From the NCBI GenBank assembly GCA_964016885.1, contig OZ024741.1:182218001-182282000 (forward strand): a stretch of DNA of 64,000 bases, read 5' to 3'. Positions within the stretch are counted from its first letter, which is position 1, and each line of letters opens with the position of its first letter. Both the position numbers and the translations under genes were made by a program. Positions 3,636-33,632 of the stretch are shown piece after piece. The notes beneath the pieces were generated by a model. That model worked only from the letters and a program-made list of their open reading frames with translations. It searched no databases and was not told where the DNA came from. This stretch comes from Eledone cirrhosa (lineage: Eukaryota).

Positions 3636-4907
3636 TCTATATCTATATATCTATACTAATAAAGCTGTATGCAACAAACTTTTCGCCAAACGGCTGAACC
3701 AAACGGCACCAAATTTGCACCATAGATGTAATTTTTTCCAAGTAAGAAAATGAGGGTATTTTTGTCTACTAAATTTTCTTAAAAGATTAAAGATATTATT
3801 TAAATATTCACTTCTTTAAAATTTTCAAATGTCAACACTTCCGGTTATACGACATTCCTCTCTCTTTCTTAGTTTGTCTTTTTAGATAGATACATGGCTA
3901 TAACGTTGCACGCTTATAATATGTCTCTGTATGTCTGGCTTTCTGCATTATTACAGCATTCCTTTATACGAATATATACGTATATATACATTCATAAACA
4001 TGTTATTTACAGTTGTATAAAAAAGAAGTATAATTGTTTCTACTTTTGGCACAAGGCCAGCAATTATTTCAGTACATTACTGGTACTTTATTATATATAA
4101 TATATATAATACGACATTCCTCTCACTTTCTTACTCTGTCTTTTTAGATAGATACATAGCTATAACGCTGCACGCTATTAATATCTGTCTGCCTGTCTGC
4201 ATTGACTTCGCTTCTAACCAACTTTTAATTAATTATATATATATAATTATATATTCGTGTACTTATTTTCAACAGTAATACTATACTATATGTATTTAAC
4301 AGTCATACTATACTATATATTTTCAACAGTAATACTATACTATATGTATTTAACACTCATACTATACTATATATTTTCAACAGTAATACTATGCTATATA
4401 TTTTCAACAGTAATACTGTACTATACTATATAGTTTCAACAGTAATATTATAGTATATACTTTCAACAGTAATACTGTCTTATACTTTATATTTTCAACA
4501 GTAATACTATACTATATATTTTCAACAGTAATACTGTACTATACTATATAGTTTCAACAGTAATATTATAGTATATACTTTCAACAGTAATACTGTCTTA
4601 TACTTTATATTTTCAACAGTAATACTATACTATATATTTCAACAGTAATACTATACCATATATGTTCAACAGTAATACTATATTATATGTTTTCAACAGT
4701 AATACTGTACTATATATTTTCAACAGTAATACTGTACTATACTATATATTTTCAACAGTAATACTGTAGTATATATTTTTAACAGTAATACTATACTATA
4801 CTATACTGTACTATACTATACTATACTATATATTTTGAACAGTAATACTATACTACACAGACGGCTTGTTGTCAGTTTATCCAAGCGAAGCTAGGTACGT
4901 CAGCTAT
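3636..4907 (+). mobile_element. Non-autonomous Helitron-like element with internal minisatellite
   Basis: 5' A|TCTAT...CTATACTAATAAA; degenerate 3' hairpin CCAAGCGAAGCTAGG followed by CAGCTAT (CTAG-like end); shares internal segments with the 5403-6129 element and with 930-1030. Confidence 0.6.
4255..4853. repeat. Minisatellite, ~26-31-bp unit TATATTTTCAACAGTAATACTATAC
   Basis: About 20 adjacent variant units with no unique spacers. Confidence 0.9.
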
Positions 4908-14835: not shown

Positions 14836-14886
14836 AGATTCTACAGGACTAAAACTGTTTCATTCTTTAGAAGTCATCAGGAATCT
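14836..14886 (-). ncRNA. Type I hammerhead ribozyme (family A, inverted copy)
   Basis: Reverse complement of 15117-15167 with one loop change. Confidence 0.8.
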
Positions 14887-17757: not shown

Positions 17758-17832
<75 letters not shown>

Positions 17833-17836
<4 letters not shown>

Positions 17837-18356
17837 TTAAGTCGTTTGGAACCCTCGACAATGCAAATGGGTAAATCTCCGGGTAACAAGGTCCGGTGGT
17901 GGAGAGAGAGATGTAAGTGGGTGTACGTTGAGATGCGTGGTGTGTATAACATGTGTGAGATGTGTAGAATGGAGGGAAGAGTATAAAGGATAAAAATAAA
18001 AATAAAAATAAAAATAAAAATAACAACACAAGAGAGAGTTACCTTGGGAGAGATTTAATAGTCCCTATATATTTCGGATTCACATCCATCAACTGGGGGT
18101 TTTTTTCCGGGGTGGGGGAAAAGGTTGTCTGTCGGACAACTCGGAACGCGTCTTTCGCTGTTTGTTGATTTTACATCTCACACATGTTATACACACCACG
18201 CATCTCAACGTACGTACACCCACTTACATCTCTCTCTCCACCACCGGACCTTGTTACCCGGAGATTTACCCATTTGCATTGTCGAGGCTTCCAAACGACT
18301 TAAAGATATTTACTTATTGTTCCACAATGCTTCAAGCAAACTTCAATACTCTCTTA
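17833..18356. mobile_element. Fold-back element in (TA)n with a degenerate HHR in the spacer
   Basis: Arms 17833-17963 / 18173-18308, tail to 18356; minus strand 18061-18098 reads CCCAGTTGAT-GGAT-GTGA-ATCC-GAAA-TATA-TA-GGG. Confidence 0.75.
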
Positions 18357-18370
18357 TATATATATATATA

Positions 18371-18994
18371 TATATGAATGTATATATAGTTTATTTTGCA
18401 ATACACTGTATACTTAATTAAAAGCATTTTGAAGACCTTACGCTATTGTTTTATAGTAGTGACAGTCTCACTTACTTTAAATTTTCACCAAACAGGGGAG
18501 ATAAAGCTGACAGAGCTCTGTTTCGTACTTTTTGGTACTTATCAAAGCTAAGTGCTCCACCTGTTTGCTGAAAATCATGAATGTTTGATTCTTATAGAAT
18601 TCTAGTAATAATCAGGAACTGATTATACAGAGCGGTTGCCGGTCAAGCAGAAATTGAAAATTGGAATTGGTGCTCTGAAATAGCGATATATATATGAATG
18701 TATATATAGTGTATTTTACAGTTCCTGATTATTACTAGAATTCTATAAGAATCAAACATTCATGATTTTCAGCAAACAGGTGGAGTACTTAGCTTTGATA
18801 AGTACCATAAAGTAGGAAACAGAGCTCTGTCAGCTTTATCTCCCCTGTTTGCTGAAAATTTAAAGTAAGTGAGACTGTCACTACTCTAAAACAATAGCGT
18901 AAGGTCTTCGAAATGCTTTTAATTAAGCATACAGTGTATTGTAAAATGCACTATATATAAATTCATATATATATCGCTATTTCAGATCACCAAT

Positions 18995-19000
<6 letters not shown>
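18371..19000. mobile_element. Fold-back, partially tandem HHR element (320-nt unit)
   Basis: Arms 18371-18621 / 18719-18970; direct repeat 18371 vs 18691; flanked by (TA)n. Confidence 0.85.
18505..18549 (-). ncRNA. Type I hammerhead, U3-A8 core variant
   Basis: AGCT-TTGATAA-GTAC-CAAAAA-GTAC-GAAA-CAGAGCTCTG-TC-AGCT; partner copy at 18791-18835 on +. Confidence 0.8.
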
Positions 19001-19057
<57 letters not shown>

Positions 19058-27487: not shown

Positions 27488-30277
27488 TTTCTTTATTAGC
27501 CACAGGGGCACAAAAGAAGGGGACAAATACAAAGGGGGAAGTTTACATACAATAAAAACGTGTAAAATATTATCACAAATGCAATTTAAATATTAGTCGA
27601 TTTTCCCCAATAGGGGGAGACATTTCATATGGGTAACACATACCCCCGAAAAAAATGTGCAACCCTCATCTTCAGGAGTACGAAGAGTTTGTACTCCCTT
27701 CCCCTCCTCCTCTTTTTCCTCAACCTACAGGCTGATATAGAAAGAAGGCCCATTCACTCGGGCCATTCTCTCCACTTTCACCCACCTTTCATAAAACTTG
27801 CTGGGATACAGCACCTCTCTCTCCATCCTGATTCTTCTTCCAACGTGGTATTTGAAAAAAAGAATCAGTTGTTGGTCGGAGAGAAAGGTGTGTGACCTCA
27901 GCTCTTTCAACCTTGTCCACCATACAACCTCTTTCGCCATAGCTATCACACAAAGGAAAACCGCTCTTCCTTCGTTTTTGAAGGAGGGTGGCGGTTTGAT
28001 CATGACAATGGACCCGGTGGTCAACCGGATTGGTCCCACCCGCGACAATAGTCGTTCTACATAGCCCCACAGGTCGGTGACGCCCGGGCAGTGTATGAAT
28101 TCGTGCGCGATGGTTTCTTCGTCTCGCACGCACCTTGGACAGATCTTTTTTGCAGGGTCCCTGCCCGGGCGCTCATGTCTGTCGAGCTTGTCTCGAACTG
28201 GTAGAGCTCCTCGGTAGCACTGCCAGGCCAGGGACATTTGAAAGTTGTCCATCGTTCCCGGGCGGAAGGTCCTACCGAACAGACTGGCCAGTTCGTCTTC
28301 CTCTACGCCCAGAGTTTCACCGAGCACGTCGTCGCACTTGCTGCGGATCAACCCTCTATAGAATGACGAAGTGGCGTCTCCACTGATCGCCGGCTCCGCC
28401 TGCCAGAGGGCTGTGAGCGCCTGAGCACATTCGATGTGCCAGTCGCCCATTTTCCTCGGTCTTTGCTTGACCCAGGACTGCAGCTCGGTCAGCGAGACGA
28501 GCCGTGGGAAGGAATACGTAGAGATGCCGCAACCTGAGCGCGTGTTTGCGCATCGTCAGCCACGGCAACCCCAGCCCTCCGTTGGAAGGGCGTTGGCAGC
28601 AGATGGGTCTTCTCACCAAAGGAGCCCGCCTCTTCCAAAGGAATTGGAAGAGCGCACTCTCCATTTTGGCGAGCGTTTTGGCTGGACAAGGCACGATGGT
28701 CAAGCGGTAGTAGATGACGGACGCTATAAAAGCGTTCGCCACCTCCGCTCGAACTTTCAAGGATAGTTTGCACTCGGCCCACTTCTGGGTGAGTGCAAAC
28801 ACCTTGGCCGACACCTCGTTCCAGTTCTTCTCAACCTGGAGGTCCGGACAAAACCAGACCCCGAGCAGCTTTACTGGTCCTTCCGTCCAGCGTCCGACGA
28901 CGCCATCGGAAGGCATCGGTTTGCCTCTCCACGATCCGAGTTGCAAACCGATGGACTTGTCCCGGTTCAGCTTCGCTCCTGTGAACCTTTCGTATTCCTT
29001 CAGTAAGGTGCCGACTTCCTCGATTTGGGAGGCGCTCGACACCATCACTGTCACGTCGTCGGCGTAGGCCGACGCCGCTTTCCGCAGTCCCGGTTCCAGA
29101 GGGATGCCCTGCAATAGCTCCAACCTCCGCAGTAGTGGCTCGAGAGTCAATACGTACAGAAGGGAGGAGAGAGGGAATCCCTGTCGAATGGATCGCGTGA
29201 TATGGAACGGCTCCGAGAGGTAGCCGTTCACCTTATCCCTTCAGCAGATGTTGCTGTTATGCATTGCAGAAATCCAGCCCCTGAACACGGGTCCGAAGCC
29301 TGCCGCCTCGAGCACCGCATCCAGATAACGATGGTCAACCCTATCGAAAGCCTTAGACTGATCCAAGTTGATCAGGGCCCCACCGAAGCCGGGTTTACAC
29401 TCTACCCTCTCTATGATGTATCGCATGAGGTGGAGGTTGTCGTGTATGGACCTGGTCGGGATTGCGCATGTCTGCGCTTCTCCCACCAGGTTCTCGACGA
29501 CAAGCGCCAGCCTCTTTGCCAACACCTTGGCCAAAATCTGTAACTCTGTGTTTAGCAGAGTTATGGGCCGGAAGTTGCCTATGTCATCCCCCTTATTCTC
29601 GTCCTTCCTGATTAGTGTGACTACGCCCCCGGTTACAGAACTGGGAATTCTCCCGTTCTGTTGCCAGTTGCAGTAGACCGCTTCCAGGAGACCGGAGAAT
29701 AAGTCCGGCATTGCTACGTAAAATTCGTAGGGTAGACCGTCGAGACCTGGAGATTTGCGTTTGCCGCATTGGCTCAGCGCGTCCCTTATCTCAGCGGCTG
29801 AAATCGGCTTTTCGCAGAACCTTGCCTCGCTGTCCGAGAGGTATGGACCGAAATCCATAGCCCCTCCCGGCGCGTCGCCTTGCCCGAACAGCTGAGCAAA
29901 GTGCCGCTGAAAGTCCGCACACATCTGCTTCGGCTCACGTATCACGCGTCCGTTTTTGTCCTTTAAAGACCGAATCGTGGACTTGTTGCCACTTTTTGCC
30001 TCCGTCACTCGGGCCCAGCTAACAGCTTTGGCTCCCTCGTTTCCCAGAGCACGTATTTTGCTTCTGACAACGCAGCCCTCGTGCTTTGCGTCGAAGAACT
30101 GGTCCAAGGCCGTTCTCGTTGCTGCACGCTGACTACGTTGCCACTTCTAATTGCCTCTTCTACTTTATCTATCTGTTCTTTCTCGGTTCTATTTCTATCT
30201 AACGCTAATTCTTTACTAAAAACTAACGAGTCTAATCTAACTGCCCTCTTGAGGGAGTACCACCATCTGTTGTTGAC
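27488..30277 (-). mobile_element. 5'-truncated Tx1/L1-clade LINE
   Basis: GC-rich, nearly continuous ORF2; short 3' UTR with AATAAA; abuts (ACCT)n. Confidence 0.9.
27725..30270 (-). pseudogene. LINE ORF2 (reverse transcriptase + CCHC zinc knuckle), frameshifted
   Basis: KSPGLDGLPYEFY, NFRPITLLNTE, LDQSKAFDRVDH, IRQGFPLS, AYADDV, CPRC..ETIAHEFIHC across ORFs 29241-30107, 28356-29231 and 27725-28450. Confidence 0.93.
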
Positions 30278-33405: not shown

Positions 33406-33632
33406 GTGAAGGCGCATGGCTTAGTGGTTAGAGCATTTGGCTTGCAATCGAAAGGTTGTGAGTTAAATTCTCGGACCGGATGATGTGTTGTTTCCTTGAG
33501 CAAGACACGTTGTTCCAGTTTACTCAGCTGTAGAAATGAGTACCGGCCACCCGCCCAGCCAGTGGGATGGTGTAATCTTATGGCTAAAACAGCACGACGG
33601 GCTGTGACCAGCGGCGCCGATCGGTCAAGGTG
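33406..33632 (+). mobile_element. tRNA-derived SINE (second family)
   Basis: TGGCTTAGTGGTTAGAGC A box, B-box-like GAGTTAAATTC, CCTTGAGCAAGACAC core; relatives at 60338, 63223 and 62880-62998 (minus). Confidence 0.8.

Follow-up and report, generated by a model that had tools for sequence, protein, structure and literature searches.

What process leaves a 320-nt sequence partly repeated head to tail, partly facing an inverted copy of itself and with both outer ends embedded in runs of TA? The question is posed by a locus of Eledone cirrhosa that lies in the window analysed here, the whole stretch of 64,000 nucleotides taken from contig OZ024741.1 (forward-strand positions 182,218,001 to 182,282,000) of the 3.0 Gb host assembly GCA_964016885.1. 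Coordinates refer to the window, and positions within the repeat unit are numbered on the minus strand from m1 (18690) to m320 (18371). The region 18355-19053 is laid out as follows:

18355..18370, no strand: left (TA)n target tract, common to the end of a neighbouring inverted element
18371..18690, minus strand: full 320-nt monomer, m1-320, whose 3' end enters (TA)n (the 'TA end')
18691..18720, minus strand: m291-320, the 5'-truncated end of the preceding unit, with the end-to-start junction at 18691/18690
18719..18969, plus strand: inverted plus arm, m70-320, joining the minus arm over the 2-base overlap 18719-18720
18970..19000, plus strand: 31-nt 'tail', m1-31, in which the plus arm runs through the junction to a second fixed 3' end
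19001..19053, no strand: right (TA)n target tract

The inverted repeat occupies 18366-19000, with arms of 256 nt that are 96% complementary. Its minus or TA arm reads m291-320 and then m1-320 from 18720 down to 18371 (350 nt), and its plus or tail arm consists of m70-320 followed by m1-31 (282 nt). A preliminary description of this DNA had reported an end-to-start junction with a 320-bp period, and both are confirmed, the coordinates having been off by 1-2 bases only: 58 of the 61 bases of the junction segment 18660-18720 are identical to the reverse complement of 18940-19000, 18366-18400 agrees with 18686-18720 at 33 of 35, and the period is 320. The 60-nt terminus named at that time is made up of 30 nt of unit end and 31 nt of unit start. 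The two arms differ at 11 of 251 sites. As both ends of the locus fall inside (TA)n, any target-site duplication is hidden. The unit lacks open reading frames of 120 aa or more, the sole overlapping frame starting at 18945 and crossing the TA tract, and the list of open reading frames contains no RT or GIY-YIG frame in the unit or the locus.

Several neighbours of the locus deserve mention in their own right. Immediately left of it, at 17835-18352, another inverted element is arranged head to head (arms 17823-17963 and 18173-18317). One of its arms stops at (TA)n and the second extends about 35 nt beyond, which repeats the TA-plus-extension pattern of the locus; related copies are found in loci L243 and L028, and a motif scan detected no hammerhead in it. 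On the minus strand, 27725-30146 holds GC-rich broken RT frames of what is presumably a LINE-like element. At 33417-33474 on the plus strand, a tRNA match of 29.4 bits, weak and right at the gathering threshold, is possibly the head of a tRNA-derived SINE, and a 27-nt AT-rich minisatellite occurs at about 4400-4730 and again at L161:1000-1900.

A dispersed family of short units

The locus is an ordinary copy of its family, one of at least 3,200 units of a non-coding 320-nt repeat with a type I hammerhead motif. An internal 26-mer has 3,206 exact matches in the genome, and a 28-mer that spans the junction has 1,349 (689+660); both figures are lower bounds, and the reversed controls returned 0. 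A DNA search of the host assembly yielded 1,964 candidates, 40 of which were scored, with top identities of 96-98%, and full units 95-98% identical to the locus monomer occur at 30 genomic loci. Among 30 retrieved junction rows, some of them belonging to the same insertion, 27 carry at least 30 nt of unit end directly upstream.

The architecture of the insertions was surveyed in a near-unbiased sample of 62 loci on contig C1, comprising 67 insertions and 105 arms. Fifty-nine loci were taken in the order of the 26-mer list after removal of duplicates and of loci already retrieved; the other 3 were chosen by hand from the junction 28-mer matches because they were clustered. One sampled locus, L159, is represented by two near-identical copies and counted twice. 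Another 41 loci, drawn from the DNA search and from the junction 28-mer matches, form a set in which full units or junctions are over-represented.

In the C1 sample the m320-to-m1 junction is read through in 57 of 67 insertions, and together with the genome-wide count this removes the preliminary description's caveat that it might be peculiar to one locus. Head-to-head inversion is seen in 39 of the 67 and a single arm in 26. The 3' ends form two peaks, one at about m310-320 (the TA end) and one at m26-43 with its mode at m31 (the tail, about 31-34 nt), and the 5' ends are scattered from m21 to m279. A (TA)3 motif lies within 14 bases of 82 of 97 TA or tail ends. Arms measure from 42 to more than 700 nt, inversion centres differ at every locus and commonly show overlaps of 1-6 bases, and no conserved ORF-like sequence was found 5' of the free ends in the sampled insertions. 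Most copies are dispersed insertions of 0.3-2.7 units. Long arrays are rare, and include L157 (C1:93.46 Mb) with 14 units and L160 (C1:82.39 Mb) with about 17. The median private change within a locus is about 2%, which indicates that the insertions are fairly young.

Two sister families accompany the family of the locus, designated A. Family B has a unit of 315 nt that is about 75-78% identical and bears a C3-G8 core; family C is about 84% identical and has a U3-A8 core, as in family A. Both share the tandem, inverted and tail habit of A, and a unit of 315-320 nt with the same tail is kept across all three. Partial tandems, 5' inversion and a one-sided tail of 30-40 bp are described as hallmarks of Penelope-like elements, PLEs (PMC8557442). 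The preliminary description overlooked that the architecture of the locus is this standard Penelope-like one. Judged by its insertion signature, the family is a non-autonomous PLE and represents a new family of a known kind, the non-LTR retrozymes. No published description of the 320-nt family was found in the literature searched, and it may already bear a Repbase or Dfam name.

The hammerhead and its predicted fold

The RNA features of the monomer are these:

18505..18549, minus strand: type I hammerhead, its stems drawn by eye and supported by covariation and RNAalifold
18549-18546 with 18508-18505, minus strand: hammerhead stem I
18545-18539, minus strand: hammerhead core UUGAUAA, with U3-A8
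18538-18525, minus strand: stem II, with GAAA at 18524-18521
18520-18511, minus strand: palindromic stem III
18481..18575, minus strand: long distal helix between m116-129 and m197-210, which closes the ribozyme domain; 9 of its 14 pairs are changed on both sides in at least one sequence
18514..18549, minus strand: alternative helix predicted between m142-148 and m171-177, in which the core would be locked away and cleavage prevented

Self-cleavage is predicted between 18509 and 18508, after m182. The locus has one hammerhead in each arm, on opposite strands; in that of the plus arm (about 18791-18835), C166G breaks the first pair of stem II.

At gathering thresholds Rfam recognizes no hammerhead in the window, the best match being HH9 at 20.7 bits (E 0.036) against a gathering score of 52. 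The motif is nevertheless backed because its helices covary. In a set of 28 natural units (18 from family A, 4 from C and 6 from B) RNAalifold recovers stems I-III, and 93% of the cells of a 40-pair structure can pair, compared with 31-45% in slid controls. Both sides have changed at 21 of the 40 pairs, a value reached by 0 of 500 shuffles; the shuffles ignore relatedness, which inflates such counts, and the changes come from three families plus subfamilies. The two-sided changes include stem II, the 3-8 pair, the palindrome of stem III and the 14-bp distal helix, and U3-A8 is exchanged for C3-G8 between families. Together with the tandem unit found throughout the family, this covariation supports the earlier proposal of a 320-nt hammerhead-bearing monomer of the non-LTR retrozyme kind. 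Assignment to the LTR retrozymes was rejected, as the hammerhead is of type I, open at stem I, and the unit repeats in tandem with no flanking LTRs. Dimeric PLE hammerheads are reportedly the subject of a 2017 paper. The U3-A8 variant is already known from PLE hammerheads (PMC4209133).

Folded as a circle, the unit reaches -69.9 kcal/mol, with z scores of -4.8 for the sense and -2.9 for the antisense strand (150 shuffles). The minimum-energy fold does not form the active hammerhead, and the core is not significantly more conserved than the rest of the unit in the C1 sample (departures of 4.9% versus 8.5%, Mann-Whitney p 0.20). A 7-bp helix pairs the 5' strand of stem I and the start of the core with the 5' strand of stem III. 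Its mean pair probability is at least 0.66 in 21 of the 28 circularly folded units, and 2 of its 7 pairs show two-sided changes, part of which follows from stem I and the palindrome. Folding without tertiary contacts predicts that this helix would act as an off-switch on the hammerhead.

Hammerhead-like motifs of other families are also present. C3-G8 versions lie in the window at 14880(-)/15123(+), 53360(-)/53366(+) and 31527(-), the first two pairs standing back to back on opposite strands, and the genome seems to hold several more such families. A different hammerhead tandem repeat at L171:7668-8662, whose motifs are spaced at 511 and 483 nt, is probably a further retrozyme family.

Copying and integration

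The best explanation of the locus, held at a probability of about 0.75, is that a non-LTR retrozyme was inserted by the reverse transcriptase and GIY-YIG nuclease of a PLE, which would have made two cDNAs on uncut RNA. Tandem loci would be transcribed as multimers, in which the ribozyme is predicted to remain mostly in the blocked fold and to cut only sometimes; the products of cutting would be some linear monomers, which may be ligated into circles. The enzyme of an autonomous PLE would then cut both strands of a (TA)n tract and take head-to-tail or circular RNA as its template. The protein, probably of Neptune type, may work as a pair, with the TA site as the start of one cDNA and the tail site as that of the other. 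Both cDNAs would stop at variable points and be joined 5' to 5' by microhomology, giving rise to the inverted repeat.

The state of the template is documented by the arms themselves. In the C1 sample, 83 of 105 arms span the predicted cut site and 15 of 105 span at least two, and there is no general accumulation of 5' ends at the cut (7 of 154 versus 5.9 expected; p 0.38 for all loci, p 0.11 for the C1 sample). Since most arms cross the cut and 5' ends are not in excess there, a cut linear monomer is not the main template. In five loci with unrelated flanks, both arms start at m183, the first base after the predicted cut. Equivalent both-arm starts number 0 at m142, where the 4-nt palindrome is the same as at the cut, 0 at m163, which has a different 4-nt palindrome, and 2 and 2 at two 10-nt palindromes; every control was run with one exact 20-mer, in one case a CpG-containing one, and the cut-site loci are few. 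The five insertions anchored at m183 look like a footprint of self-cleavage, which would mean that a minority of templates is cut.

Whether the uncut template is a circle or a linear multimer appears to have more than one answer. At L047 (1403-2030; C1:56.078 Mb) a 163-nt unit without the hammerhead, formed by m238-320 and m1-82, is repeated 3.6 times in an array that has the usual tail end and whose 5' end falls within the unit. The deletion junction has 3 exact matches in the assembly, all at C1:56.078 Mb, and the repetition of so singular a unit favours a circle as template; the array is joined head to head to a 5'-truncated PLE of the L171 family. The units of L157 are mostly star-like, with 1.5 shared of about 21 private changes per pair, and share more with each other than do units of different arrays (1.5 versus 0.5 changes per pair). 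L160 contains higher-order duplicated units with up to 14 shared changes per pair, which points to later duplication at the DNA level. In 34 cases, a variant is shared by all the copies that its locus contains. At 13 sites in 10 loci, a variant occurs in two copies and the majority base in another, compared with about 4 expected from double hits and reversions; the 13 are what is left of 19 rows once 6 from L057, which represents two separate insertions, are subtracted, and later gene conversion could have added to them. At the present locus m293 is T in the tail arm and in the upstream partial unit, and C at the TA arm's own end, a private variant that hints at a linear multimer with non-identical units. 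Such heterogeneity favours linear multimers, for which the long genomic arrays are possible sources. For the template of this locus the comparison of units places a linear multimer slightly ahead of a monomer circle, and across the family both are likely to be in use. The claim that the locus was copied from a circular or multimeric template is supported in either case: the template was uncut, as arms extend across the cut site, and the genome has arrays of 14 and about 17 units. At L057 (1660-1979, 2647-2799) two neighbouring insertions share five rare variants, which suggests local copying of one to the other or a single source.

The pairing of ends is a further line of evidence. Among 58 two-arm inversions, 49 combine a TA end with a tail end, 2 have two TA ends, none has two tail ends and 7 have one odd end; by our own arithmetic, independent choice of ends would leave about half of the 51 fully classed inversions mixed. 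At a 3% threshold, rare variant calls are shared by inverted arms in 15% of cases and between loci in 0.3%, so that one template lineage served both arms of an insertion, a result that fits fold-back as well as paired priming. The literature consulted yielded no account of the end-pairing rule or of twin priming in PLEs. The purified anole PLE protein is described as cutting and extending both target strands, starting at two internal RNA positions, one on either side of the tail, and using uncut RNA, hammerhead cleavage being dispensable (PMC11167929). Paired priming at two fixed sites of the retrozyme RNA would match this behaviour in vitro.

The preliminary description had the locus fold back after being copied, a step that is not supported in that form. 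In its developed form, reverse transcriptase rolls round a 320-nt circular RNA, the cDNA snaps back and copies itself, and a nuclease trims the tail from one end. Several observations suit such a course: the private deletion junction recurs in four successive 163-nt units of L047, the 14-unit array is mostly star-like, 34 variants are uniform within their loci, fold-backs of 12-40 nt are present at some centres, and the tail has been ascribed to nuclease resolution (PMC8557442). A simple fold-back, however, requires one arm to be contained within the other, and the two arms of this locus are not nested in this way; the 282-nt tail arm is too short to have templated the 350-nt TA arm, which in turn lacks the tail. 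Of 53 inversions in the wider set (arms shorter than 40 nt kept), 32 have the longer reach in the TA arm, 18 in the tail arm and 3 in neither; trimming would thus need to affect sometimes one arm and sometimes the other, but in no case both or neither. The lengths of the two arms show no correlation (rho -0.21, p 0.14), nor do they add up to a value linked to 320. Moreover, the mixed-variant sites exceed expectation (13 versus about 4), and a single circle would not produce the m293 pattern. Paired priming accounts for the pairing of ends better and more simply than plain fold-back does; fold-back combined with the trimming of exactly one end is an option as well, and on balance an unlikely one.

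Much less probable still is the view that the units are solo pLTR remnants of an autonomous PLE, with tandems arising by later duplication of DNA. The higher-order duplications of L160 would suit it, and local amplification from pLTRs has been proposed elsewhere (10.64898/2026.07.22.740005). The sequence upstream of a unit is, however, another unit with scattered truncation in 57 of 67 dispersed insertions, not the conserved ORF-like sequence that was sought 5' of the free ends; the unit is absent from the PLEs sampled at 90 loci, and three sister families have kept a unit of 315-320 nt with its tail. These observations largely refute the proposal. A TA-inserting MITE or fold-back DNA element carrying a hammerhead-like string by chance is highly improbable: long inverted arms of high complementarity at a TA target would be expected of one, but arm lengths and centres vary, fixed terminal inverted repeats are missing, 26 of 67 insertions consist of one arm only, the ends correspond to two distinct positions in the unit, and the covariation points to an RNA stage. 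A local rearrangement or assembly artefact has next to no probability, for while no public contig spans the inversion centre of the locus by at least 31 letters on each side (contigs of four runs of one study), as expected for a high-copy repeat, the junction 28-mer recurs throughout the genome and arms that differ from each other at 11 sites are not expected of a chimeric read.

Two cDNAs primed on uncut RNA thus remain the preferred reading. A fuller version is tentative and would be the less probable outcome: that a paired enzyme primes both strands at two fixed RNA sites, each strand at its own, and can roll round a circle, including the ribozyme-less one of 163 nt, that the conserved blocking helix is an off-switch silencing the hammerhead in the circle, and that the rare cut-anchored insertions show the ribozyme firing.

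A probable Penelope-like partner and comparison with known systems

A PLE partner is suggested by the insertion signature, and the genome holds candidates in abundance. It contains 10,597 GIY-YIG candidates, 150 of which were scored, and among them are long RT plus GIY-YIG frames, several with RT scores just under the Pfam cut-off. Several PLE frames carry a CxxC motif before the nuclease, a feature described for the Neptune and Nematis clades (PMC8557442), and a Neptune-type partner is provisionally indicated. Copies of these PLEs terminate in (TA)n and contain hammerheads; for the L161 and L164 families, two 3' ends are seen. With the monomer and the family B unit as queries, no pLTR sharing the 320-nt unit was found among 90 GIY-YIG loci, 89 of them with a PLE nuclease match; these were drawn from the 150 scored candidates, a selection that leaves out families with an N-terminal nuclease or weak Pfam scores.

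Matches to the unit beside PLEs were considered as pLTRs and rejected, all of them being separate retrozyme insertions. Chimeric junctions between retrozyme and PLE occur at L262:3087-3397, L157:5118-5864 and L261:3632-5711 and involve three PLE families (L164, L171 and L161). Their reading as co-insertions was set aside, as several families are implicated and the L164 arm postdates the retrozyme arm: in the L164-type chimera the nearest identities are 99.6% for the PLE arm and 96.8% for the retrozyme arm. They are probably nested later insertions, with target deletion as an option. The distal end of the L161 family shares its last 7 bases with the retrozyme tail end, a weak lead in view of the AT-rich ends expected. 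A separate observation concerns L161:2700-8000, a young and nearly full PLE with a 938-aa RT plus GIY-YIG frame, whose copies are 97-99% alike; each of its pLTRs contains a U3-A8 hammerhead, and its two 3' ends are separated by about 60 nt.

The dependence of retrozymes on PLEs in animals has so far been argued from co-occurrence and pLTR similarity, and both the origin of PLE inversions and tails and the use of a circle as template are still questions in the field. Thousands of fairly young insertions derived from a single short unit make both matters countable, and a countable record of the likely copying mechanism is what this family adds. The rule of one TA end and one tail end, the twin arms anchored at m183 and the repeated deletion unit each yield a clear-cut expectation that the in vitro assay already established for PLEs could address. 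If paired priming, the circle and the off-switch were all to prove true, the family would constitute a fossil record of Penelope integration on retrozyme RNA.

Among known systems, the closest in composition are the metazoan non-LTR retrozymes of coral, mussel and axolotl/newt satellite 2 (PMC7229834). As described there, they are likewise non-coding tandem units of 150-450 nt, each with a single type I hammerhead whose stem III and loop are palindromic; they are AT-rich, present in thousands of copies, predicted to fold well as circles and hosted by genomes that contain PLEs. The Eledone family differs in consisting mostly of dispersed head-to-head insertions with a tail, arrays being rare, and in the U3-A8 core of families A and C. 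A predicted monomer fold that blocks the ribozyme is shared, among the animals covered by that source, with some mussel retrozymes only.

In the manner of insertion the closest parallel is offered by the EN+ PLEs such as Neptune and Poseidon (PMC8557442, PMC11167929, PMC4209133). The accounts given there include 5' truncation, partial tandems, an inverted 5'-truncated copy, a one-sided tail of 30-40 nt, microsatellite or AT-rich targets, two 3' end sites and a hammerhead, the U3-A8 variant among them. In contrast to these elements, the family has neither an RT nor a GIY-YIG frame, its whole unit measures 320 nt, and it shows no homology to the sampled autonomous pLTRs.

The Xenopus retrozymes derived from PLE pLTRs (10.64898/2026.07.22.740005) are also proposed to be non-autonomous PLE derivatives and occur as monomers, dimers and multimers. 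There the case is built on co-occurrence and pLTR homology in vertebrates, whereas here it is built on the insertion signature, pLTR homology not having been found. The non-autonomous Chlamys elements, for example MRC1 (PMC8557442), resemble the family as non-autonomous PLEs with multicopy head-to-tail insertions. They are described, however, as generally sharing 3' sequence with an autonomous family and as belonging to a green-lineage clade with an N-terminal nuclease. The plant LTR retrozymes (PMC7229834, 10.64898/2026.07.22.740005), finally, are non-autonomous and hammerhead-bearing and have a circular RNA stage, which is proposed here, but differ in their type III hammerheads located in LTRs, their PBS and PPT, their 4-bp duplications and their dependence on Gypsy elements.
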